Shown one piece after another: positions 2 through 32,000 of a DNA stretch of 32,000 bases (positions are counted from its first letter, which is position 1; each line of letters begins with the position of its first letter). A program made the position numbers and the translations under genes. Where the stretch lies: NCBI GenBank assembly GCA_045599485.1, contig JAZRWA010000062.1:10072-42071 (forward strand). The letters are read 5' to 3'. The stretch comes from Clostridia bacterium (lineage in GTDB: Bacteria; Bacillota; Clostridia; Christensenellales; Aristaeellaceae). Under the pieces are notes generated by a model. That model made no database searches. It was not told the origin of the DNA and saw only the letters and a program-made list of their open reading frames with translations.

Positions 2-157
2 TCCCTGCGCGCGCTGCCCGGCTATGATGTTTCGGTCATTGCCGTGGCCTTTGGCGGCGGCGGGCACAAGCTGGCCTCCGGATGTCTGGTGAAGGATAGC
101 TTTGAAAACACCTCCGTACGCATGATGAGCATGATGGAGCAGGCGTTGAAGGCATGA
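2..157 (+). CDS. C-terminal end of a DHH/DHHA1-family phosphoesterase (NrnA-like), 5'-truncated by the window edge
   Basis: The frame starting at nt 2 reads SLRALPGYDVSVIAVAFGGGGHKLASGCLVKD...EQALKA, then TGA at 155-157. The FGGGGHxxAsG motif is typical of DHHA1 domains. The stop overlaps the truB ATG (ATGA). Confidence 0.5.
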   Translation, partial: SLRALPGYDVSVIAVAFGGGGHKLASGCLVKDSFENTSVRMMSMMEQALKA

Positions 158-1056
158 TGGACGGTTATATCAACGTGCTCAAGCCCCCGGGAATGTCCAG
201 CGGCGGCGTGGTGGGGCTTGTCAAGCATCTGACGGGCATGAAAGCCGGTCACGCGGGCACACTGGATCCCGAAGCCTGCGGCGTACTGCCGGTCATGGTG
301 GGGCGCGCTGCCCGATTGTTTGATTTTCTGGTGGAAAAGCGCAAGGTGTATCTGGCGGAGATCGCCTTTGGATACGCGACCGATACGCAGGACGCGCAGG
401 GCACCGCGATCGCGGAAGGGGAGAATTATCCCGATGCCGCAGCGGTCAAAGCCGTGCTGCCGATGTTCATCGGCGATATCCTGCAGCGTCCGCCCATGTA
501 TTCCGCGCTCAAGCAGAACGGCCGAACGCTGTATTCCCTGGCGCGTCAGGGCATTGAAGCGGAGATCGAACCGCGGCCCATCTTTGTGGAAAGCATCGAA
601 CTGCTGGAGGAAACACCGCGCCATGGTTTTCTGATGCGGATCACCTGCGGACGCGGCACCTACATCCGTACGTTGTGCCATGATATCGGGGCGGCGCTGA
701 ACTGCCCGGCGCACATGCGCTTTTTGCTGCGTGAGCAGACGGGCGCTTTTACGCTGGAGACGGCCTGTACGCCATAGGAGCTTCGTGAAGCGAAGGAAAA
801 CGGAACACTGGAGAGCCTCATCCTGGCCCCCGATGCACCGTTGGGGCATCTGCCCCGTATTGATGCTCGGGAGCGGCTGTGGAAGAAAGTCGTCAATGGT
901 GTGCCCTTGGGCAGAGAAGACTGGCAGGGGGATCAGGGTCCCGCGCGGTTATACTGCAAAGGCGCGTTTATTGGTGTGTGGGAAGCCGACGCCGAGGGCT
1001 TTTTGAAGCCCCGCGCGATTTTAAATACGGGAAAGGAAGTAAGCGGCAATGAATAA
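154..1056 (+). CDS. truB: tRNA pseudouridine(55) synthase TruB, 300 codons with one in-frame TAG at 775-777 (codon 208)
   Basis: N-terminal GYINVLKPPGMSSGGVV and the catalytic-Asp motif HAGTLDPEACGVLPV are present. ORF-track pieces 154-777 and 841-1056 share one frame, and the reading ...TLETACTP-TAG-ELREAKENGTLESLILAPDAPLGHLPRIDA... runs on without a frameshift. Real stop is TAA at 1054-1056. Summed length equals a normal TruB. Confidence 0.85.
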
Positions 1057-1888: not shown

Positions 1889-1901
1889 AGCTGACCTGCA
1901 A

Positions 1902-1942: not shown

Positions 1943-1949
1943 TACGCGA

Positions 1950-2194: not shown

Positions 2195-2225
2195 GTTTTA
2201 TTCTCCTTTCGTATTGATTGCAATT

Positions 2226-2286: not shown

Positions 2287-2305
2287 CATGCAAAATGCAT
2301 AGTGC
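2274..2305 (-). terminator. Intrinsic terminator (minus strand), proximal copy downstream of the small ORF
   Basis: 10-bp stem GCACCATGCA / TGCATAGTGC. Its single mismatch becomes a G-U pair only on the minus-strand RNA. It is followed on the minus strand by TTTTTATAT. Confidence 0.55.
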
Positions 2306-2330
2306 CTGATTCTGAATGCTGCTTGTTATA

Positions 2331-2564: not shown

Positions 2565-2618
2565 GATAGTTTTCACCTCTTTTGATGATATCCTGATTGT
2601 TCACAAGTTCCTGTTCCG

Positions 2619-3278
2619 TCAATGGCATTGGTACTCCATGCGGATTCCTTTTTTGGTGTTTATTTGGTGCTTGTGCGCTCCAGTTGTATGCTTTTGTGGC
2701 ATTCCATGATCACTTGTGTCAAAGTCAATGTAGGCGTATCCATCATTTCCGTAAACTCGTCTTTGAAGTACCTTCCCACCGTCATCAACTTTGTCAGTGA
2801 TAGAATCAGGATTGCTTTTGAAAGGTAAACCATTCATCAAATCTGAATTGTTTATTACCTGTCTTTCGTTAAGCATCATTCTGTATCCATCTTCTATTTT
2901 ACCACTTTTCCCAGTATTTTCAACGGTTTTTGTGGCATTCAGATACTTTTCACGGAACAATTCAAACTGATCAGATTTATCCAGTTGGAAATATTCCGCT
3001 TTGGCTTGCATCCGCTTCAGTTCGTCTTCATCCAATGCCCACTTTGCCCTGGTCAGCGCACAGCATCGACAGTTGATATCCTCGGAAGGAATGCCGAATT
3101 GAAAAGGATACTGCGCTTCCATACCTTCCACTTCAAACGGCTTGCCCTGGTCACGGATCTGACCGTCAAGCAGTCTGTGTGTGTAGCGTGTAGCACCGTC
3201 CATGGTGACATCCCATTCTTTGACGATATCGTGGCTGATTTGACTGCCGTTGACAAAACGAATAAACAGGGATATCAT
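2619..3278 (-). CDS. C-terminal portion of a MuF/SPP1-gp7-type phage head-morphogenesis protein with an uncharacterised C-terminal extension; N-terminally truncated relative to the family
   Basis: WDVTMDGATRYTHRLLDGQ...KPFEV...EDINCRCCAL matches the conserved core of the Mu F / gp7 family (W.t..D.r.R..H..l.G...F....NCRC). About 120 further residues follow, ending ...GYAYIDFDTSDHGMPQKHTTGAHKH.... An in-frame TAA sits immediately upstream of the ATG, so the normal N-terminal half is missing. TGA stop. Confidence 0.5.
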   Translation of the reverse strand: MISLFIRFVNGSQISHDIVKEWDVTMDGATRYTHRLLDGQIRDQGKPFEVEGMEAQYPFQFGIPSEDINCRCCALTRAKWALDEDELKRMQAKAEYFQLDKSDQFELFREKYLNATKTVENTGKSGKIEDGYRMMLNERQVINNSDLMNGLPFKSNPDSITDKVDDGGKVLQRRVYGNDGYAYIDFDTSDHGMPQKHTTGAHKHQINTKKGIRMEYQCH

Positions 3279-3326
3279 TTATCTTGGTACATTGTGCTGA
3301 TTTTTTGAAAAAACGGAGGCAAAACC

Positions 3327-6506: not shown

Positions 6507-8873
6507 ATGATGACGGACCGGACGCTGCGCGTGCTGGAATTCAACAAGATCCTGCTTCGACTGGCGGAATCCGCCGTCACGGAGATGGGACGGGAAAAAT
6601 GTATGGCACTGCGCCCCACCGATAATCTGGCTCTGGCGGAGGATATGCTGCAGGAAACGGAGGAGGCACAGGTCATACTGACCTATCTGGGCGAAAGCCC
6701 GCTCATTCCTTTCAATGATGTGCGGCATTCCCTGACCATTGCCGGAAAGGGCGGTGTGCTGGGCATGAAGGCATTGCTGGACATTGCCCGGTGCCTGTCT
6801 GCCGCAAGAGCCGCCCGGACCGCCCTGGTGACGGAGCGGGAAAACACCCCGCATCTGACGCGTCTTGCCAGCAATCTGCAAACCTTCCGTATGCTGTAGG
6901 ATGCTATCAACGGTGCCATTATCAGCGAGGAAGAGATGTCCGACCATGCCAGCCCCGCGCTGGCGGATATCCGCCGTCACATCCGTCAGGCCAATGAACG
7001 TGTGCGTGAGAAGCTGAACAGCATGGTGCATGGCGGCGGTTTTTCCAAATACCTGCAGGAAAACATCGTAACCATGCGTGACGGCCGCTACTGCGTGCCC
7101 GTCAAGCAGGAATACCGGCAGATGGTGCCCGGTCTGGTGCATGACCAGAGCGCGACAGGCGCTACCATCTTTGTGGAACCCATGGCGGTGGTGGAGCTGG
7201 GCAACGACCTGAAGCAGTGGGCGGTCAAGGAAAAGGAAGAAATCACCCGCATCCTGGCTGAGCTTTCCGCCCGGGTGGGAGAGCAGAGCGAACTGATCGA
7301 AAACAATGTGGATCTGCTGGCCCGACTGGATTTTATCTTCTGCAAGGGTCATTTATCCCGGGAAATGCGCGGTGTGCTGCCGCACATGAACCGCGAAGGA
7401 AGGGTCAGGCTGGTGCGGGCAAGGCATCCGCTGATCGATCCCGAAAAGGTCGTGCCCTGCGATCTGTGGATGGGACAGGATTTTACCACCCTCATCATTA
7501 CCGGTCCCAATACGGGCGGCAAAACGGTTACGCTTAAAACGGTGGGTCTGCTGAGCCTGATGGCGCAGGCAGGCTTGCATGTGCCGGCTGATCTTGGTAC
7601 CGAGCTGGCGGTCTTTGGACAGATCTTTGCCGATATCGGCGACGAACAGAGCATTGAGCAATCCCTGTCCACCTTCTCCTCCCACATGAAGAACATTGTC
7701 GATATTCTCTCCAATGTGGAGCAGAACGATCTGGTGCTGTTTGACGAGCTGGGAGCGGGCACAGATCCCACCGAAGGCGCGGCGCTGGCGCAGACCATTC
7801 TGGATACCCTGCTGAAGCGCGGCATCCGCACAGTGGCGACCACGCATTACAGCGAGCTCAAGGCGTACGCCCTTTCCACCCCCGGTGCTGAAAACGCCAG
7901 TGTGGAGTTTGACGTCAGCACGCTTCGCCCCACGTACAAGCTGTCCATCGGTGTACCGGGCAAATCCAATGCCTTTGAGATCAGCCGCAAGCTGGGCTTG
8001 AGCGCGGGCATTATCGAGCGGGCGAAGGAGCTGCTTTCCGCCAATGATGTGCGCTTTGAGGATGTCATAGCCGGTGCCGAATACCAGCGTCAGGTGGCAG
8101 CCAAAGAGCGGGAAGCGGCGGAAAAGGCGAGGGCGGAAGCGATCCATCTGCGGCAGGAGGCCGAGCGGCTGTACCGCGAAACGGAAGAAAAGCATCAGCA
8201 CGCCGAAAAGAAGGCCAAGGAAGAAGCACGGCGCATTGTTGAGAAGGCGCGCCGGGAAGCGGAAGAAGTGATCGGCGAGTTGAAAAATATGAAAAAAGAA
8301 GGCGCCGCGGGGCGTGAGGGTGATATCAACCGCCTGCGCCGCCGTATGCAGGACAGCGCCGACAGCGTAGCGGAGGGCATCCAGGGCACGCAGACCCTGA
8401 CACAGGCCCCCAAGACGCTGAACGTGGGGGACACCGTGGATATTCTGCACCTCAACACCCGCGGCACCGTGCTGAGCAAGCCCGACGCCAACGGCGATGT
8501 GCAGGTGCAGGCGGGCATTCTCAAGCTGAAGGCCAACCTGAGCCAGCTGCGTCCTGTGCAGGAAAAAAAGAGCGAAGTCAAAAAGAAAAAAAGTGCTGTC
8601 ATGGTGCACACGGGCACTGCAAGCCGCACTGTACACATGGAGTGCGATGTGCGCGGCATGAGCCTTTAGGAAGCGCTGATGGAAGTGGACCAGTACCTGG
8701 ACGAAGCCATTCTGGCGGGTCTTGGTGAGGTGGGTATCGTCCATGGCAAAGGCATGGGCGTGCTGCGCAGCGGTATCCAGCGGCATTTGAAAATGAATCC
8801 GCAGGTCCGCTCCTTCCGCCTGGGTCAGTACGGTGAGGGCGAGGACGGCGTGACCATTGTGACCCTGAAATAA
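6507..8873 (+). CDS. mutS2: Endonuclease MutS2 (788 codons) with two in-frame TAGs at 6897-6899 (codon 131) and 8667-8669 (codon 721)
   Basis: RBS GGGAGGG lies upstream of the ATG at 6507. Walker [31 protein letters not shown] and TTHYSELK are present, followed by a charged coiled-coil and a C-terminal Smr domain ([17 protein letters not shown]). Track pieces 6438-6899, 6936-8669 and 8679-8873 all share one frame. TAA stop. Confidence 0.88.
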
Positions 8874-8894: not shown

Positions 8895-9587
8895 ATGACG
8901 AATGAAAAAAGCTTTATCATGGTTGTGGATGATGACCCCAACATTGCGGGCCTTGTGGAGTTGTGCCTGAAAAAAGAGGGCTACGAGGTACAGACCTATA
9001 ACCGCGGTGATACCGCGATGGAAGCATTTCGTCAGAATCCGCCGCAGATGATGATCCTGGATATCATGATGCCCGGAATGGACGGCTGGCAGGTCTGCCG
9101 GTCGGTGCGTCAGATCTCGCAGATCCCCATTATCATGCTGACTGCCAAGGGGGAGACCTTTGACAAGGTGCTGGGGCTGGAACTCGGCGCGGATGACTAC
9201 ATCACCAAGCCCTTTGACAACAAGGAGCTGGCCGCCCGTGTCAAGGCGGTGCTGCGCCGTACGATGCCGAGCGAGGGGGAAAAGAATACCCTCTCCTTCC
9301 CGGGTCTGACGGTGAGCCTGGAAAAGTACGAGGTTTATTATCAAGGGCATGCGGTCGATATGCCGCCCAAGGAGCTGGAGGTATTGTACTTCCTGGCTTC
9401 CCATCAGAACCGCGTGTTTACGCGTGAACAGCTTTTGGAGCAGGTGTGGGGCTTTGACTTTTTCGGCGACAGCCGCACGGTGGATGTGCACATCAAGCGC
9501 TTGAGGGAAAAACTGATCGGCTGCGAGGAATATGGCTGGCAGATCCGCACGGTGTGGAGCGTCGGCTACAAATTTGAAGTGAAATGA
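8895..9587 (+). CDS. OmpR/PhoB-family response regulator
   Basis: Receiver domain (VVDDDP...ILDIMMPGMDG...LTAKG) plus a winged-helix output domain (LSFPGLTV...ELEVLYFLASHQNRVFTREQLL...VDVHIKRLREKL...IRTVWSVGYKF). RBS GGAGG. TGA stop. Confidence 0.9.
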   Translation: MTNEKSFIMVVDDDPNIAGLVELCLKKEGYEVQTYNRGDTAMEAFRQNPPQMMILDIMMPGMDGWQVCRSVRQISQIPIIMLTAKGETFDKVLGLELGADDYITKPFDNKELAARVKAVLRRTMPSEGEKNTLSFPGLTVSLEKYEVYYQGHAVDMPPKELEVLYFLASHQNRVFTREQLLEQVWGFDFFGDSRTVDVHIKRLREKLIGCEEYGWQIRTVWSVGYKFEVK

Positions 9588-11059
9588 AAAAACGATGGAG
9601 CGGCATGTATGCGCGGCTGATGACCATGGTGCTGGCAGTGATCCTGGTATGTGTCCTGTCCCTGGTCAGCATCTTCTGGTTTGCTTCGCGCAACAACTAT
9701 ATTTCCACCCGCATGGAAGAGCTGAAGGTGCAGGCGTATGACCTGGCCTATATGGCCAGCCGTGTGCGCAACAACACGGTGGCGGAAAACTTTATGCACG
9801 TCAGCACAACGGCGGATTATATCAAATGGAAGGTCAACCGCATCTACAACGACTTTTCCGCTTACGCTGTGGTGGTGGACCGCACAGGGCAGACCACAGT
9901 GTACATCACCCCGGACATGCTTGAGACCGAAATGGTCGATTTTGACCGGGAACTGGTGGTCAGTACGCTGCGTCAGGTGTTGACCGGGCAGGAGATCGTG
10001 ACCAGCGTCCAGAGCGAATCGGGTCCCATGTTTACGGTGGCGGTTCCATGGATCGATAACGGCACGGTGCTGGGCGCTGTATTTGTACAGACCGCGGCAC
10101 AGACGGTTTACAGCGGCTTTCATTCCCTCATCTGGCAGGTCGTGCTGGCGGCGTTGATCGTGATGATCTGTTCGGCGCTGGTGGTGCTGCTCATCACACG
10201 ACCCATGATCCGCCCGCTCAAGCAGATGGCGGCGGTTTCCCGCGAGATGGCGGAGGGACGCTTCGGCCGCCGTGTTCCCGAAAGCGGCAGCCTGGAGACC
10301 CGGGAACTGGCACATGCCTTCAATATCATGGCTACGCAGCTGGATGAGCTGGAGCAGACGCGCAAGGATTTTATCGCCAATGTATCGCATGAGCTGCGCT
10401 CGCCCATGACCAGCATACAGGGTTACCTGCAGTGCATGGCGGACGGCACCATCGACCGCGAGGAACAGGGACGGTACATGCAGATCGTGCTGGACGAGAC
10501 CAAACGGCTTTCCCGTCTGGTGGGCAACCTGCTGAACCTGTCCCGCATGGAAAACGGCACCACTGAACTGGCGTTGAGCGATTTTGACATTCACGAAAGC
10601 ATTCGACGCGTGATCATTGCCAATATGACCCAGCTGGATGAAAAGAACATGGAGCCGGAGCTGACCTTTGGCGGCGAACCGCTCTATGCCCATGCCGATG
10701 CCGAGCAGATCTATCAGGTGCTGACCAACCTCCTCAGCAATGCCGTCAAGTATACGCAGGAGGGCGGCAAGATCACCTTGGGTACCCGTGTGGAGGACAA
10801 GCTGATCCATGTAACGGTGGCGGATAACGGACCGGGCATTGCACCATAGGATGCCCCGCACATTTTTGACCGCTTCTATAAGGCGGACAAGGCTCATACG
10901 GTGGGCAAGGGTACCGGTCTGGGGCTGGCCATCTGCAAATGCATCATGGACAAGCATGGTCATCAGCTGCGGCTGCTCCCCTCGGACCGGGGCAGCGTGT
11001 TTGAATTTACTTTGGATCTGGGAAAGGAGCCGCCGCGGCACATTGAAAATGAAGCTTGA
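9584..11059 (+). CDS. Sensor histidine kinase (TM, HAMP, HisKA, HATPase_c; 491 codons) with an in-frame TAG at 10847-10849 (codon 422)
   Basis: H-box [16 protein letters not shown] and N-box LLSNAVKYT are present, followed by [46 protein letters not shown] (G1, F and G2 boxes continue in frame after the TAG). The start overlaps the regulator's stop (ATGA). True stop is TGA at 11057-11059. Confidence 0.85.
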
Positions 11060-20828: not shown

Positions 20829-21842
20829 TCAAATTTCGCGCAGCAGTGGAATCACGTCTGTGAATCGGGCGGCTTCCGCTTCAATGACGGAATCGAAATT
20901 GGAGTGCTCGGCGCGGCGGAACACGGCGGCGTGAACATCCACCAGACGCTCAAAAGTGTCGCCGAGAAGAATGCCGTAAAAGCGCAGAAGCGCGTACAGA
21001 ACGCCGAGGGCGAGTCCGGCGGCTTGCTGCTGTGTAGCTTTTTCGGGGAACCCGTTCCGCATCACATGGTTGACAAGCGCTTGCTCCAGCCAAACATCGG
21101 ACATCGGATAGCGCTGCTCGTATTGACGGCGGCAATCACGCAATACCGTGTCCGCGTCATCGCCCAGTAAGCGTTGTGCCTCTTCCCAAAGCGGCTGCAG
21201 AGCGGCACTGTCCCGGGACAAAAAACCGATGAGCGGCAGCAGAGAAAGTTCGGAGTGCTCTTTGACCTGCATCCCCGGCAGACGGCGAATGCGCTCTTTC
21301 AGGGGTAGGGAGCGGTCCTGCAGCAGGGCGATGATGCCGTCCCGCGCGGCGACAGGGGCGGGGGACGGGATACCGGTCTGTTCCATTGGAACATCCATCA
21401 TCATGGAGACCCAGCGGAGGGGCGATTCGGTGTGATACAATTGCTCCAGTACCGCTTCACAGCTGCCCGCACAGACGCATTCGGCCCCGTGCAGCGTTTT
21501 GATGGAACGCGGAAAGAGACGGCAGACAAGGGGCAGGGCGGCCTCGCCTTTTTCACACTGCAGAGCGCAAAGGCCGTCCGGACGCTGCAGAGGACAGATG
21601 CCCAGCCAGTTGGGGGACAGCTCGGCATAATTTTCGGGAAAGGGATGGCTTCGGACATGGAGAGCGATGTCCAGCCTGCGCCGGAGCGATGGGGAGCAAT
21701 CCATGCCAAGTAAATGAAAATACTCATCCTCTGTCAGGGCGATGGGCCATTCATGACAGCAGGAATGACGGCAGGCACCGCACTTGCACTGAAAGCGCGG
21801 CAGATAATCGGGAACACGCACAGGGATCTTCATGCATTTCAT
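20829..21842 (-). CDS. Cysteine-cluster protein of the FliB / YkgJ-like family (annotated elsewhere as flagellin lysine-N-methylase)
   Basis: The N-terminus PDYLPRFQCKCGACRHSCCHEWPIALTEDEY fits the CxxCxxxCC...W.I pattern of that family. The ATG at 21833 (MKIPV) has better Shine-Dalgarno spacing than 21842. TGA stop. Confidence 0.55.
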   Translation of the reverse strand: MKCMKIPVRVPDYLPRFQCKCGACRHSCCHEWPIALTEDEYFHLLGMDCSPSLRRRLDIALHVRSHPFPENYAELSPNWLGICPLQRPDGLCALQCEKGEAALPLVCRLFPRSIKTLHGAECVCAGSCEAVLEQLYHTESPLRWVSMMMDVPMEQTGIPSPAPVAARDGIIALLQDRSLPLKERIRRLPGMQVKEHSELSLLPLIGFLSRDSAALQPLWEEAQRLLGDDADTVLRDCRRQYEQRYPMSDVWLEQALVNHVMRNGFPEKATQQQAAGLALGVLYALLRFYGILLGDTFERLVDVHAAVFRRAEHSNFDSVIEAEAARFTDVIPLLREI

Positions 21843-21937
21843 CTCCGAGGCGTATTATATAGCTTTCAAAGCGTGATCGGCTGAATTTTTATTGTATTTG
21901 TTTGGTACAGCGAATCGGGGAGAGGGTCGCGCTCAAG

Positions 21938-21966
21938 TTGACACGGGTCGGTGAATAGCGTATACT
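21938..21966 (+). promoter_or_regulatory. Sigma-70-type promoter for the VanY-type gene
   Basis: TTGACA (21938-21943), a 17-nt spacer, then TATACT (21961-21966). Confidence 0.55.
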
Positions 21967-21997
21967 GAAAATGCCATGAATGGCTGAAGGAGCGTAT

Positions 21998-23302
21998 ATG
22001 AAACGAAAGGGCGGCATTTCCCCGGTGGGATTGATGGTCATTATCATTCTGATCGTACTGATCATTGTCTTTTTTGCGGCGGCATGGGAAAACCATGCCC
22101 GCTATCAAAAGGAAGCGGCGGTGACACCGACGCCTTCCATCACGCCGCGTACTGTTCGCATTACGGAAGACCCGGCGTATCCGACCTCCACCCCCACGCC
22201 GTGCGTGCTGCAGGTGAATTCGGTTGGCATTGAGGTAAAACAATTGCAGGAGCGGCTGAAGGAGCTGGAGTATTATACCGGCACGGTGGACGGTCAGTAC
22301 GGAAACGGCACCAAAGCCGCCGTCAAGGCTTTTCAGGAGCAGCACAGGCTGACAGCTGACGGCATCGCCGGCGATAAGACGATCGCTCTGCTGTATTCGG
22401 CTTCCGCGCAGGTGTTTGTGCCTACGCCCACTCCTTCGCCTACGCCCGCGCTTTTGTCCAACGGCAGCAATGGCGAGGAAGTCAAAATGCTGCAGGAGCG
22501 CCTGAAGGTGCTGGGGTATTATTCCGGCACGGTGGACGGTGCCTTTGGCAGCGGTACCAAGGCGGCGGTGAAGCTTTTCCAGCAGCAAAACGGCCTTGAG
22601 GCGGACGGCGTGGCGGGCCAGAAAACGCTGGCGCTGTTGTATTCCGACGCCGCCAAACATGTAACGATCACCCCCACCCCGGAACTGATCCAGGTGCTGA
22701 ACGGTTCTGTGCCGATGCTGGTCAACAAGCAGCATACGGTGGCCAAGGATTTTGTACCGGCAGACCTGGTGGATATGAGCGCTTATTGCCCGTCTTCGCT
22801 GGTCAAGATCAAATACAGCGGCACCAAGGGTCAGCGGGATGCCGTGAATGCCCTGGTGTTTATGCTGCAGGCGGCAGCGGCGGACGGCATCACCAACTGG
22901 CAGGTGAGCGCGGCGTACCGCAGCTATGCCGATCAGCAAAGCATGATGGATTCCAAAATTCGCTCCTATATGGAGAACAACAACATGTCCCGCTCGCAGG
23001 CGGCCAGCGCTGCCAGCCGTACGGTGGCGCAGCCGGGCGCCAGTGAGCACCACACCGGTCTGGCTTTTGACATGACGGTGCCCAATACCAGCACCTTCCT
23101 TGGCACCAAGCAGTGCACCTGGCTGCATCAGCACTGCTGGGAATACGGCTTCATCATCCGCTATACCGAATAGAAAAAGGATATTACGGGTTTTGAGGCG
23201 GAGGCGTGGCACATCCGCTATGTGGGCAAGGAACACAGTGAGAATATCCGCAGGCTGAACATGTGCCTGGAGGAATATGTGGACTTCCTGAACAAAAAAT
23301 AA
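21998..23302 (+). CDS. Membrane-anchored D-Ala-D-Ala carboxypeptidase (VanY / peptidase M15B) with two PG_binding_1 repeats; 434 codons with an in-frame TAG at 23171-23173 (codon 392)
   Basis: TM anchor ISPVGLMVIIILIVLIIVFF. The repeat G..V..LQERLK.LGYY.G.VDG.FG.GTK.AV..FQ occurs twice. M15B motifs AAYRSYADQ and SEHHTGLAFD are present, followed by GFIIRYTE-TAG-KKDITGFEAEAWHIRYVG (the ExxH motif lies after the TAG, in the same frame). RBS GAAGGAG. TAA stop at 23300-23302. Confidence 0.82.
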
Positions 23303-23321
23303 GAAAAGGGGCGTTGGATTT

Positions 23322-24089
23322 ATGGCACTGTTCAGAGGGACGGTTCGTTCCAAAGCGTTGGGCATGGATACCGTCGCCAATGTGGTGATACCCTACGACA
23401 TCATGGCCCGGGATATGAACCCGCCGGAGAATGACAAGGTGCTTTATCTGCTGCATGGACGGCATCAGAATGCCGATTCATGGTGCCGCATGAGCGGTGT
23501 GGAACGCTATGCCCGCAAGAACGGCTTTACGGTGGTCATGCCGGAGGTGCAGCTTTCCTATTATTCGGATATGGCGTATGGCCCCAGGTATTTTGAGTAT
23601 GTCAGCAAAGAGTTGCCGGAGATGATGAACAGCATGTTCCGTCTGCCCGAAGGCAGGGAGCATACCTTTGTGGGCGGTCTTTCGATGGGCGGCTTCGGCG
23701 CGGCCAAGATTGCCCTGAACCATCCCGGGGCGTATGCCGGCGTGATGTGCTTCTCCTCCGGTGTCTATATCCTGGATACCATGCAGCAGTGCGTGGAGAA
23801 GGGCTTTTTTACCGTAGCAGAAGGGACGGCGATTTTGGGAGAAGGCTTTCCCTGCAAAGAAACCGCAAACGACCTGGATGATCTGATGGTACGCTGGCCC
23901 GCCGATGTGAAAAAGCCCCGCTTCTATGTGACCTGCGGTACGGAGGACGGCCTGCTGCCGCTGACCCGCCGCCTGCATTCGGCGTTGCAGAAGAACGGCT
24001 TTGACAGCACGGAAGAGGAATGGTCCGGCAATCACGACTGGGATTTCTGGGATGCCTCGCTGCGCAAGGGTATGGCATTTATGAAATAA
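23322..24089 (+). CDS. Alpha/beta-hydrolase esterase (esterase D / tributyrin-esterase-like)
   Basis: VLYLLHG...W......E......G..VVMPE and the nucleophile elbow GGLSMGGFGA. TAA stop. Confidence 0.75.
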   Translation: MALFRGTVRSKALGMDTVANVVIPYDIMARDMNPPENDKVLYLLHGRHQNADSWCRMSGVERYARKNGFTVVMPEVQLSYYSDMAYGPRYFEYVSKELPEMMNSMFRLPEGREHTFVGGLSMGGFGAAKIALNHPGAYAGVMCFSSGVYILDTMQQCVEKGFFTVAEGTAILGEGFPCKETANDLDDLMVRWPADVKKPRFYVTCGTEDGLLPLTRRLHSALQKNGFDSTEEEWSGNHDWDFWDASLRKGMAFMK

Positions 24090-24094
24090 GTTTT

Positions 24095-24127
24095 CGCCCG
24101 AAGGTGTAAAACCCTCGGGCTTTTTTG
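24095..24127 (+). terminator. Intrinsic terminator after the esterase gene
   Basis: GCCCGAAGG / CCCTCGGGC stem (one mismatch) followed by TTTTTT. Confidence 0.6.
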
Positions 24128-24173
24128 ATGCGGTCCGATGCCGAAAAAAAGAAGAAAATATGATTGATTTTTC

Positions 24174-24202
24174 TTGCACTTTCATTGGTTTTGTGCTATA
24201 AA
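24174..24202 (+). promoter_or_regulatory. Sigma-70-type promoter (extended -10) for the MATE gene
   Basis: TTGCAC (24174-24179), a 17-nt spacer ending in TGC, then TATAAA (24197-24202). Confidence 0.5.
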
Positions 24203-24244
24203 CATTCGGAACCATTTTCCAAATCGATTTTCGGAGCTTTTTTC

Positions 24245-25606
24245 ATGGCGAGAACAAGTGTACGGGAGATGACTGACGGCTCCCCGATGAAGCTGGTACT
24301 GGGCTTCGCGGCGCCGCTGCTCTTTGGTTTTTTATTTCAGCAGCTGTATGCCATTGTGGATACAGCCATTGTGGGACGGTATCTTGGCGCCGATATGCTG
24401 GCGGCGGTGGGCGGAACCGGCTCGGTCAACTTTCTGATCAACGGCTTTACCATGGGCTGCTGCTCGGGCTTTGCCATTCCGATCGCCCAGACCTTTGGCG
24501 CAAGGGATCATACCTCCATGCGCCGTTATGTGGCCAACGCGGTCTATGTCTGTGCTGTGATTTCGATTCTGATGTCGGTCAGCACGGCGCTGCTTTGTAC
24601 GGATATCCTGCGGCTGATGAACACACCGGAGGAGATCCTGTACAATTCCGCGGCCTACATCCGCATCATTTTTGCCGGCATTCCCGCGACCATGCTGTAT
24701 AACATGGCGGCCGGTGTGCTGCGGTCGCTTGGAGACAGCAAAACGCCCGTGATGTTTTTGATCCTGGCTTCTCTGGTCAACATTGCGCTGGACCTGCTGT
24801 TTATTATCGTATTTCAGATGGGGGTGGCCGGCGCTGCCATTGCGACCATCATCAGTCAGCTGATCTCCGGCGCGGGCTGTGTGGCGGTGATGGTGCGCTC
24901 CTTCGCGATTCTGCGTATGAATGCCGAGGACCGTCAATTCCGTGCGGAGTACGGAAAAAAGCTGCTGCTGGTGGGTGCTCCGATGGGCTTGCAGTATTCC
25001 ATCACGGCCATCGGTTCGGTGGCCATTCAGTGGGCGGTAAACGGCATTGGCGTTACCGCGGTGGCCGCTGTGGCGGCAGCCGGCAAGCTGACCAACTTTT
25101 TTGCCTGTGTTTTTGACGCGCTGGCGACCACCATGGCCACCTTTGCCGGGCAGAATGTGGGAGCAAGGAAACTGGACCGTGTCGGCAAAGGCTTGTGGGC
25201 AGCCTCGATCATCGGGGTTGTATATTGCCTGCTGGCGCTGCTGGTGGTGCTGTTCTTTGGTCCCGCGCTGATTGGATTGTTTGTGGACGGCGCCGAAAAC
25301 GCGGAGGTCGTCCGCCTGGCACAGCAGTTTTTGACCTGGAACGCCTCTGCTTTTGTGCTGCTGCTGTTTGTCAACATTGTTCGACTGACGGTACAGGGCA
25401 TGGGCTTTACGCAGGCAGCGATGATTGCCGGTGTTTTCGAAATGTTTGCCCGTCTGGCGGTGGCAATGCTGCTGGTGCCGGCTTTGGGCTTTAACGGGGC
25501 CTGTATGGCCAATGTGGCGGCCTGGGTGGCGGCGGACGCTTTCCTGTTCCCATGCTATTTCCGTGTGCTGAAAAAGCTGAAGCTGCGTCAGGCAGCGGCT
25601 CTGTAA
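24245..25606 (+). CDS. MATE-family efflux transporter
   Basis: PMKLVLGFAAPLLFGFLFQQLYAIVDTAIVGRYLG is a typical MATE N-terminus, and about 12 hydrophobic segments follow. The start was chosen at MARTSVREM. TAA stop. Confidence 0.85.
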   Translation: MARTSVREMTDGSPMKLVLGFAAPLLFGFLFQQLYAIVDTAIVGRYLGADMLAAVGGTGSVNFLINGFTMGCCSGFAIPIAQTFGARDHTSMRRYVANAVYVCAVISILMSVSTALLCTDILRLMNTPEEILYNSAAYIRIIFAGIPATMLYNMAAGVLRSLGDSKTPVMFLILASLVNIALDLLFIIVFQMGVAGAAIATIISQLISGAGCVAVMVRSFAILRMNAEDRQFRAEYGKKLLLVGAPMGLQYSITAIGSVAIQWAVNGIGVTAVAAVAAAGKLTNFFACVFDALATTMATFAGQNVGARKLDRVGKGLWAASIIGVVYCLLALLVVLFFGPALIGLFVDGAENAEVVRLAQQFLTWNASAFVLLLFVNIVRLTVQGMGFTQAAMIAGVFEMFARLAVAMLLVPALGFNGACMANVAAWVAADAFLFPCYFRVLKKLKLRQAAAL

Positions 25607-25622
25607 GAAAGGAAATGACACG

Positions 25623-26357
25623 ATGCAGAAGACCTTCACCCTTGAAAAAGTACTGACTACCTCGGATTGTGACATGAACAGCGCGTGGAAGCTCAGCGCG
25701 GTGCTGCAGACCATGCAGGACTTGTCCGGCATGCACAGCGAGGTGCTGGGCTTTGGCTACCATGTGATGCGTGAGAAAGGCCTTGTCTGGGCGGTGGGCA
25801 GCTATGAAGTACAGATGGATCACTACCCGCACTATGGCGAAAAGGTGGTTGCTGTGACCTGGCCGACCGTGATGCGGCATGGCTTTTATCTGCGCTATTA
25901 CAGCTTCAGGGATGAAAACGGCGTTGAATTCGGCCGTGCCTCGGGCATGTGGATCCTGATGCGGCTGGCGGACCGCACGATGGAGCGCGGCAACCTGCTG
26001 GAGGGGAAAATGCCCGACAACAGCGACCTGAAGCCGGCGCTGGCCATGCCGGGACGCCTGCCCGCCGTGTCCGGGGAAAAGACGACTGAGGTGTTCCGTC
26101 CGCGCTACAGCGATATCGATGATAATCTGCATGTCAATAATGTGCGCTATCTGGATTGGTGCTGCGACGCGCTGGGCATTGAGTGCCTGCAAAAGCAGCA
26201 GATCAACCGTCTTGTGATCAACTACAGCCGTGAGATCCGTCCGCAGGACGAGGTGGAAGCCGCCATGACCCGTACGGATACCGCCTTCAGCTACCGCGGC
26301 AGCGTGGACGGTACGGCGCATTTTACGGTGGACGGACTGCTGGTGCCGCGCGCTTAA
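25623..26357 (+). CDS. Acyl-[acyl-carrier-protein] thioesterase
   Basis: SDCDMNSAWKLSAVLQTMQD....H......G.......GL.W and a later YSDIDDNLHVNNVRYLDW (double hot-dog FatA/B-type pattern). RBS GAAAGGAAA. TAA stop. Confidence 0.75.
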   Translation: MQKTFTLEKVLTTSDCDMNSAWKLSAVLQTMQDLSGMHSEVLGFGYHVMREKGLVWAVGSYEVQMDHYPHYGEKVVAVTWPTVMRHGFYLRYYSFRDENGVEFGRASGMWILMRLADRTMERGNLLEGKMPDNSDLKPALAMPGRLPAVSGEKTTEVFRPRYSDIDDNLHVNNVRYLDWCCDALGIECLQKQQINRLVINYSREIRPQDEVEAAMTRTDTAFSYRGSVDGTAHFTVDGLLVPRA

Positions 26358-26365
26358 GCATTAAT

Positions 26366-26404
26366 AAACGGACAGACTCCAAGATCGGAGCTGTCCGTTT
26401 TTGT
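26366..26404. terminator. Bidirectional terminator between the convergent thioesterase and ROK genes
   Basis: ACGGACAGACTCC / GGAGCTGTCCGT stem flanked by an A-run and TTTTTG. Confidence 0.6.
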
Positions 26405-27298
26405 TTATTCCACTGCCAAGGCCTGCTTTGCCAGCAGGAAGGCGCCCATGACGCCGCTGTGGATGCCCAGACCGGGGGCGGTGATGTAGTCGTCAAGCTG
26501 TTCATTCAGCGCGGGGGAGACGATGTAGCGGTTGAGGAGGGCGTTGGTTTTGCTGCGGATCATGGGCAGCAGGAAGCTTTGCTGCATGACACCGCCGCCG
26601 AGGATGATCTTTTCCGGGGAGAAGCAGCAGATGGCATTGACGCACATCTGCGCGAGGTAGGTGCTTTCGATCTCCCAGCTGAGGTGCTCCTGCGGCAGTT
26701 CTTTGGCCGGCACCCCCCAGCGCTTTTGCAGCGCGGGACCGGAAGCCAGCCCCTCCAGACAGCCTGTGTGGTAGGGGCAGAAGCCCTTGGGAGTGGGGTC
26801 ACGGGGATCGGGCTGCAGCAGCATGTGCCCCAGTTCGGGATGCACCAGCCCGTGTACCGGCTGACCGTGGATGATGAGGCCGCCGCCGATGCCGGTGCCC
26901 ACCGTGACATACAGGCAGGAGGAAAGACCTTTGGCGGCGCCGAGACGGGCCTCCGCCAGCGCTGCGGCGTTGACATCGGTATCAATGACGGTGGGAATGC
27001 CCAAAGCATCACGGAAGGTGGATAACAGCGGCACATTCTGCCAGCCCGGCTTGGGCGTGGCGGTAATGGAGCCGTAGGCGGGGGAGGAAGGCTGCAGGTC
27101 CAGCGGACCGAAGCAGCCGATCCCCAGGGAAGCGATGTTCCGTTGACGGAACCAGTCGATCATTTCCGGCAGTGTTTCTTCCGGGGAGCGGGTAGGCAGC
27201 ACGGTTCTTTCAATCAGTTCGCCGGCGTCATTGACGACGCTCAGCACCATTTTGGTGCCGCCGGCTTCCAGAGCGCCGTAAAGGGGAGAAAAAGCCAT
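26405..27298 (-). CDS. ROK-family sugar kinase (fructokinase/glucokinase-like)
   Basis: YGALEAGGTKMV is a ROK/Mak-type N-terminal ATP motif. Also present: VIDTDVNAAALAE, VTVGTGIGGGLI, and the zinc motif HPELGHM...C.YH..CLE. RBS AAGAGG lies 5 nt upstream of the ATG at 27298. TAA stop. Confidence 0.8.
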   Translation of the reverse strand: MAFSPLYGALEAGGTKMVLSVVNDAGELIERTVLPTRSPEETLPEMIDWFRQRNIASLGIGCFGPLDLQPSSPAYGSITATPKPGWQNVPLLSTFRDALGIPTVIDTDVNAAALAEARLGAAKGLSSCLYVTVGTGIGGGLIIHGQPVHGLVHPELGHMLLQPDPRDPTPKGFCPYHTGCLEGLASGPALQKRWGVPAKELPQEHLSWEIESTYLAQMCVNAICCFSPEKIILGGGVMQQSFLLPMIRSKTNALLNRYIVSPALNEQLDDYITAPGLGIHSGVMGAFLLAKQALAVE

Positions 27299-27337
27299 AA
27301 AGACCTCTTTTCCGCAGCAAACGCTGCGCTTTTTTGC

Positions 27338-27366
27338 TTGCAAGGCAATGAAAACGGTTGTATACT
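27338..27366 (+). promoter_or_regulatory. Sigma-70-type promoter for the YczE-like gene
   Basis: TTGCAA (27338-27343), a 17-nt spacer, then TATACT (27361-27366). Confidence 0.5.
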
Positions 27367-27396
27367 GTCACCCGGAAGATAAACCGGGAGGCAGGC

Positions 27397-28017
27397 ATGA
27401 AAAAGTACACGGTAAGGCGCCTTGTGATGATGGTGTTGGCCATCTTTGTGATCGGTCTGGGGTTGGAACTGTTTATTCTGTCCGCGATGGGCAGTGAAGC
27501 CAGCTCTTCGTTTGCACGGGCAACGGGGGATACCTTCGGCATTCCCTTTTCGATCAATATGATCGTGCTGAACTGCGTATATTTTGTGGCAGAGATCCTT
27601 TTCGGACGGGATCTGATCGGCCCGGGTACCTTTGTCAACTGGTGCTTTGTCGGCATCAGCGCCACCGTGTGGGAGAGCCTCCTGCAGGCGATCGGTTTTG
27701 TGCCGTCCTCCATGCCGGAGCGCGTTGCCTTTTTGCTGTCGGGCGTCATGGTGCTGTCGTTTGCGGTCTCGCTGTATCAGACCGCCGATACGGGCATTGC
27801 ACCGTATGACACGCTGGCCATCGTGCTCGCCAGAAGACTACCCATTCCGTATTTCTGGTGCCGCATGATGGTGGACTGCACCTGTGTCGTGCTGACGCTG
27901 GTATTCCATGGCGCGGTGGGTGTGGGTACGGTCATCTGTTCCTTGTGCCTTGGACCGTTTGTGGCGTTTTTCAATACGCACGCCTCACAGCAGCTGTGCG
28001 GAATGAAGAAGACGTGA
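27397..28017 (+). CDS. YczE/YitT-like integral membrane protein
   Basis: RRLVMMVLAIFVIGLGLELFILSAMGSEASSSF... followed by repeated hydrophobic segments. RBS GGGAGG. TGA stop. Family assignment is by resemblance only. Confidence 0.55.
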   Translation: MKKYTVRRLVMMVLAIFVIGLGLELFILSAMGSEASSSFARATGDTFGIPFSINMIVLNCVYFVAEILFGRDLIGPGTFVNWCFVGISATVWESLLQAIGFVPSSMPERVAFLLSGVMVLSFAVSLYQTADTGIAPYDTLAIVLARRLPIPYFWCRMMVDCTCVVLTLVFHGAVGVGTVICSLCLGPFVAFFNTHASQQLCGMKKT

Positions 28018-28039
28018 CCCGATGGATATTGTAACATAA

Positions 28040-28078
28040 CAAAACCGCCGGAGTAAATTCTCCGGCGGTATTTTCTTG
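28040..28078. terminator. Bidirectional terminator between convergent genes
   Basis: ACCGCCGGAG / CTCCGGCGGT is a 10-bp stem with AAAA on the 5' side and ATTTTCTT on the 3' side. Confidence 0.6.
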
Positions 28079-28080
28079 CA

Positions 28081-29310
28081 TTAATCCCTGGGGAGGCTTT
28101 GCATGTAAGCGTCCATGGAGGCCGCGACCACCTTGGAGCGTTCCACTGCTTCCACAACGGTGCGGGCGCCGCTGACGACGTCGCCGCTGGCGAATACGCC
28201 TTCACGGGTGGTGGCACCGTTTTCGTCGGCGACCAGCAGACCGCGGGCGTTTGCCTGCAGACCGTTGGTGCTGTTGACAAGACGGCTTCTCGGCCCCTGG
28301 GAGATGGAGATGATGGTGCTGTCGGCAGCGTACAGGATGGGCTCGGTGCCGTCGGAAACGGTCTTGCCGTTTTCGTCCTCCATGGTGCCCTGGAAGATGA
28401 CACCTTCATCCACGATGCGGACGGGCATGCGGTTGAAGACAAATTCGACCCCTTCCAGTTTGGCGTAATCGACCTCGCTCTTGCTGGCGGTCACGTGCTG
28501 GGAACGGGAGAACACACGCACATGCTGTACGCCCTTGCGGATGGCGGTACGGGCCACGTCCATGGCGGCGTTGCCGGCGCCAATGATGTTGAGGGTTTTG
28601 CCCAGGTTGTAGCTGTCGGGGTTGTTGAGGTAGTTGATGCCAAAGTGGACGTTGCCCAGCGTTTCACCGGGAATGTGCAGGGCATTGGGCTGCCATACGC
28701 CGGAACCGATGAACACGGCCTTGTAGCCATCGCGGAACATATCCTCGATGCTGATGGAAAGACCAATGCTGGTGTTGGGACGCACGCGGATGCCCTTGAG
28801 CACCAGATGATGATATTCAAACTCATCAATGACCGATTTGGGCAGACGGAACTCGGGAATGCCGTAGCGCAGCACGCCGCCGATCTTGTCCTTGCCTTCA
28901 AAGATGGTGACCTGATAGCCCTTGCGCGCCAGTTCTACGGCGATGGTCAGACCCGCGGGACCGCTGCCGATGATGGCTACCCGCATCCCGTTGGAGGGGG
29001 CGGGGCCATCGGTATTCTTGGTGGTGTAGGTGGTGGAAATATAGTTTTCGATCATGGAAAAGTGCACCGGCTGCCCCTTGCGGCCCAGCACGCAGTGACC
29101 TTCGCATTGATTCTCATGGTTGCAGACCACGGAGCAGATGACGCTGAGCGGATTGTTTTCAAACAGCATGCGGCCGGCGTCGTCGATCTTGCCGTCCAGC
29201 AGCATGCGGATCACGGTGGGAATATTGGTGTGGATGGGACAGCCCTTCTGGCACTGCGGTACTTTGCAGTTCAGACACCGCTGGGCTTCCTCCAGAACAT
29301 GAATCGCCAT
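28081..29310 (-). CDS. NAD(P)H-dependent FAD/Fe-S oxidoreductase of the GltD / SudA / NfnB (glutamate synthase small-chain-like) family
   Basis: N-terminal Cys clusters (CLNCKVPQCQKGCP, CSVVCNHENQCEGHC) and two Rossmann motifs (VAIIGSGPAGL and LNIIGAGNAAMD). RBS AAGGAG. TAA stop. Confidence 0.8.
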   Translation of the reverse strand: MAIHVLEEAQRCLNCKVPQCQKGCPIHTNIPTVIRMLLDGKIDDAGRMLFENNPLSVICSVVCNHENQCEGHCVLGRKGQPVHFSMIENYISTTYTTKNTDGPAPSNGMRVAIIGSGPAGLTIAVELARKGYQVTIFEGKDKIGGVLRYGIPEFRLPKSVIDEFEYHHLVLKGIRVRPNTSIGLSISIEDMFRDGYKAVFIGSGVWQPNALHIPGETLGNVHFGINYLNNPDSYNLGKTLNIIGAGNAAMDVARTAIRKGVQHVRVFSRSQHVTASKSEVDYAKLEGVEFVFNRMPVRIVDEGVIFQGTMEDENGKTVSDGTEPILYAADSTIISISQGPRSRLVNSTNGLQANARGLLVADENGATTREGVFASGDVVSGARTVVEAVERSKVVAASMDAYMQSLPRD

Positions 29311-29371
29311 GAAAAAATCTCCTTGTCAATCGTTGGGGATAGAATGTTTCATATTAATTATAACTGTTTTA

Positions 29372-29410
29372 GAATAAAAAACAAAGTGTCCGAAGCGGAT
29401 CGGACACTTT
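29372..29410 (-). terminator. Intrinsic terminator (minus strand) after the M42 peptidase gene
   Basis: 11-bp stem AAAGTGTCCGA / TCGGACACTTT with a 6-nt loop, followed on the minus strand by GTTTTTTATTC. Confidence 0.6.
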
Positions 29411-29468
29411 GCCTGTAAAGAAAAAAGCCGTATATGTTTCAAAAACTGAAACGGAATGGAAAACGGTG

Positions 29469-30551
29469 TCAGAAAGATGCAATGATCTCCGGCGTCATCG
29501 AGCGGACGACTGCTTCCGCCAGCTGAACGGAGGACTCAAAATCCTAAAGGGTACAGATGCCGTTCATGGAGTGGATGTAGCGTACCGGCACACCGGCGAC
29601 TACGGAAGGAATGCCCTCCAGCGCAGTATTGATGACGGCAGCGTCATTGCCGCCGCCCTCGCGGACAGAATCCTGCGCCTTGATCCCCTTCTATGCGGCC
29701 AAATCGAGCACATAACGCTGGTAGCGCGGGGAACAGATGACCGATACATCCATGTGCCGCAGCATGGGGCCGCGGCGCAGGGCGGTTTGAATGGCGTAGG
29801 ACGGGGTAAAGGTATCATCCGCCGGACAGCCCTCAAACACATAGGCGAGGTTGGGACGAACATGATTGACCGATACGCGGGCGCCTCTTTCGCCAACCTC
29901 TTCCTGGGCGGAAAGCACACCGACCACATCACAGGGCAGGTCGGCCCCTTTCAGCCTTTCCAGCGTTTCCAGCAGCGCGGCGACGCCGATGCGGCAGTCA
30001 AAGGCTTTGCCAAACAGCAGGCCTTTGCGGGTATCGGCCTGAAAACGGGAGGCGGGCACACCGGGCTCACCGATGCGGATGTGGAAATCACGGATAGCCT
30101 CCTCCCGGCTGGTGGCGCCGATATCGATGACAAAGGACGAGATCTCCGGAACGCCGCCGCTCTTTTCCGCGGCGGTCTGAAAATGCACCGGCTTGGCGGC
30201 GATGACACCGGGCAGGTATTCGCCCAGAGCGTTGCGCACCAATACATCCGCGGAGGAGAGCGCCAGGGGGCTGAAGCGGCCCAAAGTGACAAAACGGAGC
30301 GTGCCGTTTTCGTGGATGGAGTGGATCATGAATCCCACTTCATCGCTGTGCGCGTCCAGCATGATGACCGGACGGTTCCCGGTGTTTTCATTGCGGTGGA
30401 TATACAGATTGCGCATGCAGTCTTCTTCAATGGGACCGATATCATGGGCAAGCTCACGGGCGACAGTGAGTACATCGTCCTAAAAACCGGAAGGACCGAA
30501 AGCGTTGGAAAGTTTTTCAATCATTTTCAGCTGTTGTTCAATGCTGCGCAT
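29469..30551 (-). CDS. M42-family metallo-aminopeptidase (glutamyl aminopeptidase / endoglucanase-like); 360 codons with three in-frame TAGs at 30480-30482, 29691-29693 and 29544-29546 (codons 24, 287, 336)
   Basis: RBS GAGGTG. The reading is MRSIEQQLKMIEKLSNAFGPSGF-TAG-DDVLTVARELA...VIMLDAHSDEVGFMI...SAQEEVGERGA...VLDLAA-TAG-KGIKAQDSVREGGGNDAAVI...VPVRYIHSMNGICTL-TAG-DFESSVQLAEAVV...SF, then TGA at 29469-29471. It is all one frame. HSDE, QEEVG and GG.NDA are the family metal or active-site motifs. Confidence 0.85.
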
Positions 30552-30570
30552 GGTTATCACCTCGATGTTT

Positions 30571-30599
30571 ATCATACGCGGACGATGTGCCGCCGTCAA
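30571..30599 (-). promoter_or_regulatory. Sigma-70-type promoter for the M42 peptidase gene (minus strand)
   Basis: On the minus strand: TTGACG (30599-30594), a 17-nt spacer, then TATGAT (30576-30571). Confidence 0.55.
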
Positions 30600-30660
30600 G
30601 CAAAAGACGAATGCTTTGCGCGAAAAAACATGGAAGATACGGAACGAAAACAAAAACCTA

Positions 30661-30689
30661 TTGACAAATACAGCAAATTATGTAACAAT
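30661..30689 (+). promoter_or_regulatory. Candidate promoter (extended -10) heading the long rny leader
   Basis: TTGACA (30661-30666), then TG-T-AACAAT around 30681-30689. The -10 match is only moderate. Confidence 0.4.
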
Positions 30690-30880
30690 AAACTGACCGG
30701 CTGAAAGATGGAGCCCCTTGCAGGAGCTTTGTCGGGCTGTTTATTGATACGCAGCGTCTCTGTTTTTGCTCCGGACGGTTTTCAGACCGCCTGATCATGA
30801 TAAAGCAATTGAAAATTGCGATTGTTGTTTTGTTGTGTTTTGCGAATAAAGTGTTTTGCTGTGCGTTGATGGCAGCTGAA

Positions 30881-30912
30881 GCCGTGACGGTTATTGCCGC
30901 ACGGTTTTTTTC
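30881..30912 (+). terminator. Intrinsic-terminator-like hairpin inside the rny leader, about 60 nt upstream of the rny start
   Basis: CCGTGACGG / CCGCACGG stem (one bulged A) with a 6-nt loop, followed by TTTTTTT. Confidence 0.5.
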
Positions 30913-30974
30913 TGCGGTCGCCCGAGATTTTAAGTATGAGTAATTGAAAAAATCAACAGAAAGGGGAGAAAAAG

Positions 30975-32000
30975 TTGAACATTGTACTGGCAATTGTACT
31001 GATGCTGCTGTTTGCGGCGGTCGGCTGCGGTGTGGGTTATTCCTACCGCCGTTCTGTGACCGAGAAACGCATCGGCCGCACCGAAGAATACGCGCAGAAG
31101 CTGCTGGACGACGCGAGCCGCAAAGCAGCGGATATTAAAAAGGAAACCGAAATCGAAGCCAAAGAAGAAGTACTGCGCCTCAAGACCCGTTTGGACGAAG
31201 AGATCCGTACCCGCCGCAATGAAGTGCAGCATGCCGAACGCCGTGTGAATCAGCGTGAGGAAGCCCTGGACAAAAAGATGGACAATCTGGAACGGCGTGA
31301 GGAAACGCTGAACCAGAAGAGCGAGCAGACCCAGAAGCTGTACGCCGAAGCCGAAGAACTGCGGGACAAGCAGTCCAAGGAATTGGAACGCATTGCCGCG
31401 ATGACGCAGGATGAGGCCAAGCAGATGATCATCGGTCATGTGCAGAAGGACGCTTATCATGACGCCGCCGCGCTGGTGCGTGAAATTGAAGCCAAGGCAA
31501 AGGAAGAGGGCGAAAAGAAAGCCCGCAACATCATTGCCCTGGCCATCCAGAAGTGCGCCGCCGACCATGTGGCCGAAACCACCGTGTCGGTCATTAACCT
31601 GCCCAATGATGATATGAAGGGCCGCATCATCGGTCGTGAGGGCCGCAACATCCGCGCCCTTGAGACCGCTACCGGTGTGGATCTGATCATTGATGACACG
31701 CCCGAGGCGGTGATCGTTTCCGCGTTTGATCCCGTGCGCCGTGAGATCGCCCGCCTGGCCATTGAAAAGCTGATCCAGGATGGCCGCATCCATCCCGCCC
31801 GTATTGAGGAAATGGTGGAGAAGGCCAAGAAGGAAGTGGACAACCAGATCCGCGAAGCCGGCGAACAGGCTGTCTTTGAGACCGGTCAGCACAGCCTGCA
31901 TCCCGAACTGGTCAAGATCCTGGGCCGCATGCGTTATCGCACCTCCTATGGTCAGAACGTGCTGAAGCACTCCATCGAGGTCAGTCATCTGGCCGGCCTG
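30975..32000 (+). CDS. rny: Ribonuclease Y, 5' part (continues beyond the window); apparent TTG start
   Basis: Absent from the ORF track because it has no stop in the window and starts at TTG. RBS AAAGGGGAG lies 6 nt upstream. There is an N-terminal TM helix ([20 protein letters not shown]), a coiled-coil, a KH domain ([36 protein letters not shown]) and the start of an HD domain ([20 protein letters not shown]). The frame was read by hand to nt 32000 with no stop. Confidence 0.9.

Follow-up and report, generated by a model that had tools for sequence, protein, structure and literature searches.

In-frame TAG codons in conserved genes of a herbivore-gut Clostridia lineage suggest that UAG is translated, most probably as glutamate

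Results

An M42 peptidase gene with three in-frame TAG codons

We analysed a stretch of 32,000 nucleotides of Clostridia DNA, hereafter referred to as the window. The window is bacterial chromosome, and its host is an uncultured genus-level Clostridia lineage from the herbivore gut. With TAG read through, 24 genes (9300 codons) are found in it, of which 22 have a Pfam match. They include truB, a HAD hydrolase, a cyclophilin, a U32 peptidase, mutS2, a response regulator and histidine kinase pair, ispE, trmO, an M15 dipeptidase, an Opp-type ABC transporter, a VanY-type peptidase, an esterase, a MATE pump, an acyl-ACP thioesterase, a ROK kinase, a GltD-like oxidoreductase, an M42 peptidase and RNase Y. 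The M42 peptidase gene and its signals are as follows.

29469..30551, minus strand: M42 family metallopeptidase gene, 360 sense codons, in-frame TAG at three positions, ending in TGA
30571..30599, minus strand: sigma-70-like promoter (TTGACG, 17 nt, TATGAT), 10 of 12 consensus matches
30557..30562, minus strand: Shine-Dalgarno sequence AGGTGA, 5 nt upstream of the M42 ATG, read from the sequence
30551-30549, minus strand: start codon ATG, from the translation
30482-30480, minus strand: TAG at codon 24, where the family has an invariant Glu
29693-29691, minus strand: TAG at codon 287, a variable position
29546-29544, minus strand: TAG at codon 336, also TAG in the relative L002
29471-29469, minus strand: true stop TGA, TGA in all four aligned genomes
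29369..29414, minus strand: intrinsic terminator, a 15-pair hairpin followed by a T-run, from the sequence

Under the standard bacterial code the M42 frame is interrupted by the three TAGs, and it stays open only when TAG is given a sense meaning. Apart from these three codons, no in-frame stop and no frameshift was found between 29469 and 30551. A preliminary description of this gene had listed three in-frame TAGs, the first at codon 24, and the translation places them at codons 24, 287 and 336. It had also listed four conserved family motifs (HSDE, QEEVG, GGGNDA and RYIHS), all present in the translation, together with the promoter, the Shine-Dalgarno sequence and the terminator, each of which we recovered as described. 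Its remark that the nonsense codons are all of one type, with no other lesion, holds as well. We agree with its proposal that the gene is a compact test case for read-through, because codon 24 is an invariant Glu.

The protein is a full-length member of its family. Residues 50-344 match Pfam Peptidase_M42 (PF05343) over profile positions 4-292 of 292 (E = 2e-68), with a score of 231 bits against a curated cut-off of 23.2, and the match runs through two of the three TAGs. Solved M42 structures are matched with E = 8e-53 to 1e-31. The closest intact homolog, the 360-aa protein P0001, has 94% amino-acid identity. Residues H68, D70, E71, D185, E217, E218, E240 and H327 occupy columns that are invariant in an alignment with 19 homologs, and they align with the solved structures. 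We take these residues to be the metal-binding and catalytic ones (HxDE, D, EE, E/D, H).

TAG is the only in-frame stop in the window

Four further genes in the window carry TAG within their reading frames.

154..1056, plus strand: truB, TAG at codon 208 (775-777), spanned by Pfam TruB_N and TruB_C_2
6507..8873, plus strand: mutS2, TAG at codons 131 (6897-6899) and 721 (8667-8669), with Pfam MutS_V, MSSS and Smr
9584..11059, plus strand: histidine kinase (HK), TAG at codon 422 (10847-10849), spanned by HATPase_c
21980..23302, plus strand: VanY-type carboxypeptidase, TAG at codon 398 (23171-23173), spanned by the Pfam VanY domain

The in-frame stops in the 24 genes thus comprise eight TAGs in five genes, zero TAA and zero TGA, and no frameshift was found in any of the 24. 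In each of the five TAG-bearing genes, Pfam domains extend across TAG codons. At the codon usage of the window, random nonsense mutations would yield TAG in just 55-62% of cases, so the TAG-only pattern is beyond chance (P of eight out of eight TAG ~0.01-0.02). Of the 23 complete genes, 15 terminate at TAA and eight at TGA. No true TAG terminator was detected in these 23 genes or in the loci of the relatives described below, although we note that TAG makes up just 9-11% of stops in more distant relatives and that the sample is too small for a firm conclusion. TAG accounts for ~1.3% of the presumed Glu codons of the window.

The sequence context of the TAGs was recorded for 10 sites in the window and in the relative L001. 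The following base is a purine in nine of them, and the following codon is GAN (Asp or Glu) in six. This may be a decoding context, or it may just reflect clustered acidic residues. Elsewhere in the window, the HAD hydrolase and cyclophilin genes are separated by a low-GC insert at 1890-3300 (~47% against 57%). Two phage-derived fragments were recognised in it on the minus strand, an r1t-holin-like N-terminus and a Mu-F-like one, and the insert looks like a prophage remnant.

The M42 gene is under purifying selection along its whole length

We computed dN/dS by the Nei-Gojobori method on codon alignments of the window M42 gene with its orthologs in the relatives L001 and L002. The codon differences comprise 87-93 synonymous and 18-20 non-synonymous changes, and the overall dN/dS is 0.05-0.06 at a dS of ~0.47. 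Comparing the segments separately had been suggested in the preliminary description, with relaxed selection downstream of codon 24 as the outcome that would speak against read-through. For the four segments between the TAGs, dN/dS is 0.07, 0.05-0.06, 0.01-0.02 and 0.09-0.13. These values are low in every segment, and therefore there is no relaxed selection downstream of codon 24. The constraint on M42 is similar to that on neighbouring genes free of TAG, and dN/dS ranges from 0.02 to 0.2 across nine genes. The window M42 gene is very unlikely to be a pseudogene.

One gene of the window evolves fast. The 337-aa gene at 20829-21842 (minus strand), which has only a weak FliB_C-like match, has more non-synonymous than synonymous codon differences (107 against 83 in the comparison with L091, 64 against 54 with L002).

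Related assemblies share some TAG sites and differ at others

The clade sample covers ~45 genes. Besides the window it consists of five assemblies that are 86-91% identical to it in DNA: L001 (ENA), L002 (an NCBI horse-faeces MAG), L089 and L091 (both from SRR27361835) and L090 (SRR28408121). The last three were reached via prematurely ended gene calls. The L001 contig, which bears P0001, has the same gene order as the window. L002, a Clostridia MAG and GTDB representative, is collinear with window positions 21274-32000 at 87% DNA identity.

In-frame TAGs occur in all five of these assemblies of the genus-level clade. Three sites are TAG in both the window and a relative. At M42-336 the window and L002, a relative 11% diverged in DNA, both have TAG, and L001 and L091 have GAG. 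MutS2-721 is TAG in the window and L089, and HK-422 is TAG in the window, L089 and L090. As L001 and L002 are more closely related to each other (96% identity) than to the others, the pattern at M42-336 implies that TAG and GAG have been interchanged more than once, as is expected between synonymous codons. Other sites are TAG in a relative and a sense codon in the window: HK-114 (TAG in L089 and L090), IspE-45 (TAG in L089) and MATE-130 (TAG in L091) are all GAG in the window, and ROK-102 (TAG in L001) is CAG. At positions 1-1563 of L001 (minus strand), two adjacent gene calls of 174 aa (with TPR repeats) and 312 aa form one frame with a TAG at their junction. More generally, every TAG-ended gene call in the loci of the clade continues in frame into the remainder of the same gene. 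TAG-24 and TAG-287 of M42 are private to the lineage of the window.

The M42 ortholog of L091 (1224-2171) departs from this picture. Its codon 234 is an in-frame TAA in place of the AAC of the others, and it also has changes at otherwise invariant residues and a raised dN/dS of 0.10-0.12. The gene is probably dispensable in that strain and genuinely pseudogenised, unless errors in the Logan assembly are to blame. The TAA and the raised dN/dS indicate that M42 itself can be lost in the clade.

The sister species and the wider family

The loci of a sister species (L082-L087), whose MutS2 is 78% identical to that of the window, have the same gene order as the window. This species has GAG at HK-422. 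In 24 gene calls from three of its loci (L082, L083 and L085), we found zero in-frame TAGs and zero TAG stops. The TAGs are thus phylogenetically coherent: they are present in the relatives, at three sites in common with the window, and none was seen in the gene calls of the sister species.

In the sister species together with relatives of 73-76% identity (L003-L006), none of 52 stops is TAG, compared to 9-11% in 73 more distant loci (P ~0.009). This suggests that the wider family gave up TAG as a stop before the codon reappeared with the meaning Glu. However, the zero out of 52 is suggestive only, because several unrelated loci are also without TAG stops. We searched for stops within tblastn alignments using ORFs of distant loci as queries, and set this search aside since it was swamped by conserved antisense shadow ORFs; the rows of the real M42 frame were kept. 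The stop codons are TAA-rich for DNA of 54-65% G+C, both in the window and in L083, where 15 genes end in TAA, five in TGA and zero in TAG.

Glutamate is the best candidate for the encoded amino acid

For 11 TAG sites, a close or sister genome has another codon at the aligned position. This counterpart encodes Glu at eight sites and Asp, Lys and Gln at one site each. At the codon usage of the window, GAG is the expected source of 12-21% of TAG-creating mutations and CAG of 21-46%, and the probability that at least eight of 11 counterparts derive from Glu is 4e-6 to 3e-4. We also calculated the log-likelihood of candidate residues over the seven sites with family alignments. Glu (-10.5) beats the next residue, Asp (-25.2), by ~15 units, and Gln (-27.4) lies ~17 units below Glu.

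M42-24 is E in all 120 homologs examined and in the solved structures 5ds0, 9qr6 and 1vhe, and the codon is GAG in L001 and L002 and GAA in L091. At MutS2-131, 118 of 120 homologs have E. The TruB-208 column of 150 homologs holds 86 E and 31 D, and the E. coli TruB also has E there; HK-422 is E in 82 and Q in 27 of 118. VanY-398 is GAG in L002 and L091. M42-287 is AAG (Lys) in L001, L002 and L091, with a family column of 51 E, 22 K and 16 R, and at M42-336 the wider family mostly has an aromatic residue. The MutS2-721 column holds 113 D and three E, and HK-114 is mostly Q. Over evolutionary time TAG acts as a Glu codon in this lineage, with GAG as its main interchange partner; against Glu stand the two sites that pair with Lys and Gln and the aromatic residues at M42-336. 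From these comparisons we consider it very probable that TAG is a sense codon in this lineage and, given that it is, quite likely that it encodes Glu.

Discussion

Alternative explanations

We consider it probable, judging from sequence comparisons, that the M42 gene is intact, expressed and under selection in a host lineage that reads UAG as sense, most probably as Glu. Its product would most probably be an ordinary peptidase of 360 residues, with Glu at each of the three TAG codons (24, 287 and 336). The preliminary description had preferred read-through to decay, and this preference is backed by the dN/dS values, by the restriction of the lesions to TAG and by the TAGs in common with relatives. 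The evidence exceeds that first claim: the TAGs are lineage-wide, TAG-336 is found in a relative with 11% DNA divergence, and the amino acid can be inferred to be Glu. A recently inactivated pseudogene, in which an internal start at Met46 would give at best a 241-residue product, is very improbable. It would agree with the standard code, which cuts the frame at codon 24, and with the public gene call of 241 aa; TAG-24 and TAG-287 are private to the lineage of the window, and the L091 ortholog appears to be degrading. But dN/dS is low in all four segments, including codons 1-23 and 288-360, which are absent from the truncated product, and TAG-336 is conserved in L002. In addition, every lesion in the five affected genes of the window is a TAG, in most cases at a Glu codon; TAA, TGA and indels are absent. 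Re-initiation at Met46 was rejected because the flanking segments are under selection. A sequencing or assembly artefact, or contamination from a recoded organism, has a negligible probability. Although every sequence used here is a metagenome assembly, the same TAGs were recovered in assemblies made separately, by different pipelines and from different samples, and lie in collinear bacterial housekeeping loci, which excludes this explanation. The collinear bacterial loci likewise rule out a phage or ciliate contaminant.

The remaining alternatives accept that UAG is translated. TAG could be a sense codon for Gln or another residue, similar to code 15, with the excess of Glu arising from mutation bias and tolerated substitutions; we regard this as unlikely. 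A tRNAGln(CUG) becomes a UAG reader by a single anticodon change, as in supE of E. coli, which counts for Gln, as do the pairing of TAG with CAG at ROK-102, the 27 of 118 homologs with Q at HK-422 and the mostly Q column of HK-114. However, the counterpart is Gln at just one of 11 sites, even though the CAG to TAG transition would be the commonest synonymous route. Gln also has to be reconciled with TAGs at M42-24 and MutS2-131, where 120 and 118 of 120 homologs have E, and with the log-likelihood deficit of ~17 units relative to Glu. Somewhat less likely still is an ambiguous UAG, in which RF1 is kept and a partial suppressor tRNA gives a mix of truncated and full-length protein, possibly with a regulatory role. 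The rarity of TAG (~1.3% of presumed Glu codons) leaves room for partial or ambiguous decoding, and pyrrolysine-encoding archaea are described as retaining an ambiguous use of amber codons (PMC12626013). Yet a TAG at codon 24 of an enzyme with a dN/dS of 0.05 would waste most of its synthesis, no gene ends in TAG among the 23 complete genes of the window or in the loci of the relatives, and truB, mutS2, the kinase and the two peptidases have no common regulatory theme. A pyrrolysine reading was rejected on the ground that the TAGs are at Glu sites in housekeeping genes.

A possible decoding mechanism

Most Clostridia have no GlnRS, and the non-discriminating GluRS on which they rely already tolerates variation at anticodon position 36. 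If UAG is read as Glu, the lineage would have a tRNA with anticodon CUA that is charged with Glu, as expected from the way all known reassignments work. By one plausible route, the non-discriminating GluRS would act on a CUA tRNA that escapes the GatCAB amidotransferase, so that Glu would be inserted at UAG. Release factor 1 would by the same reasoning be lost or weakened, which would leave TAA and TGA as the sole stops.

We searched the window and 76 kb of genus-level DNA for these components and found no tRNA(CUA), GluRS or prfA. ARAGORN reported no tRNA in the window and the genus-level loci, and an Rfam search of the 76 kb detected no family. The one tRNA-Glu call by ARAGORN, in the distant locus L059, lies inside a coding sequence, and we treated it as a false positive. 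When metagenome contigs were scanned for exact matches to an anticodon arm of the tRNAGlu type with CUA, just an unrelated inverted repeat in a low-GC contig was retrieved.

Comparison with known reassignments

Several natural codes give a stop codon a sense meaning. In code 4, UGA encodes Trp in Mycoplasmatales and endosymbionts, and in code 25 it encodes Gly in Gracilibacteria and Absconditabacteria. In code 15, used by gut phages (crAss-like and Lak), TAG encodes Gln. UAG encodes pyrrolysine (Pyl) in some archaea and bacteria, and peritrich ciliates read UAR as Glu. In the literature that we searched, every known bacterial stop reassignment concerns UGA, and no reassignment of UAG was reported in bacteria; one preprint counts three genetic codes in Bacteria. 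Screens of 250,000 genomes (2021) and ~2.7 million NCBI assemblies (2026) list no bacterial TAG reassignment, even though L002 is an NCBI record and proteins of the window contig are marked as NCBI. In the same literature, UAR as Glu is known only in eukaryotes, and Blastocrithidia nonstop has a stop codon reassigned to Glu (PMC12153298).

The case described here resembles codes 4 and 25 in that a bacterial lineage gives a stop codon a sense meaning, a single stop type appears in conserved genes and standard annotation truncates the products. It differs in the codon, which is UAG (and thus involves RF1, not RF2), and in the amino acid, Glu. Most code 4 cases are found in small or low-GC genomes, whereas the loci sampled here have 55-57% G+C. 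The code 15 phages have in common with it the TAG codon, the animal gut and presumably a suppressor tRNA(CUA), but here the codon is in chromosomal bacterial housekeeping genes and aligns with Glu rather than Gln. The eukaryotic UAR codes also turn a stop into glutamate; they involve eRF1 changes and both UAA and UAG, whereas TAA is the main stop here (15 of 23 genes). In Pyl systems, including archaea in which all TAGs encode Pyl, UAG is likewise read as an amino acid in a prokaryote. The TAGs of this lineage, in contrast, are at Glu positions, not at Lys-like ones or in methylamine methyltransferases, and no pyl genes (pylTSBCD) were found among the annotated genes of the window. Engineered RF1-deleted E. 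coli has the same use of TAA and TGA as only stops, with UAG assigned to an amino acid via a CUA tRNA, but it is synthetic, whereas the present system would be natural.

Implications for annotation and for the evolution of the code

Annotation under the standard code truncates the proteins of this lineage in databases. The public M42 protein of L002 (4862-5944; MCQ2453550.1) has 335 aa and ends at TAG-336. In the window, the public calls are the 241-aa P0364 (29691-30416) for M42 and the 414-aa P0241 (9584-10849) for the kinase. The finding also bears on phage-host biology, as TAG-recoded phages inhabit the same gut habitats.

On balance, we favour a natural bacterial code in which UAG has changed from stop to Glu in a genus-level clade of herbivore-gut Clostridia, maybe after a family-wide loss of TAG terminators. 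If true, it would be without precedent in two respects, as a bacterial stop reassignment at a codon other than UGA and as a change from stop to Glu outside eukaryotes. The lineage would then provide genetic code engineering with an amber suppressor pair that naturally inserts Glu. It would be an early-stage case for codon-capture models, because TAG makes up so small a share of its Glu codons, and it would mean that natural organisms can dispense with RF1-dependent termination.
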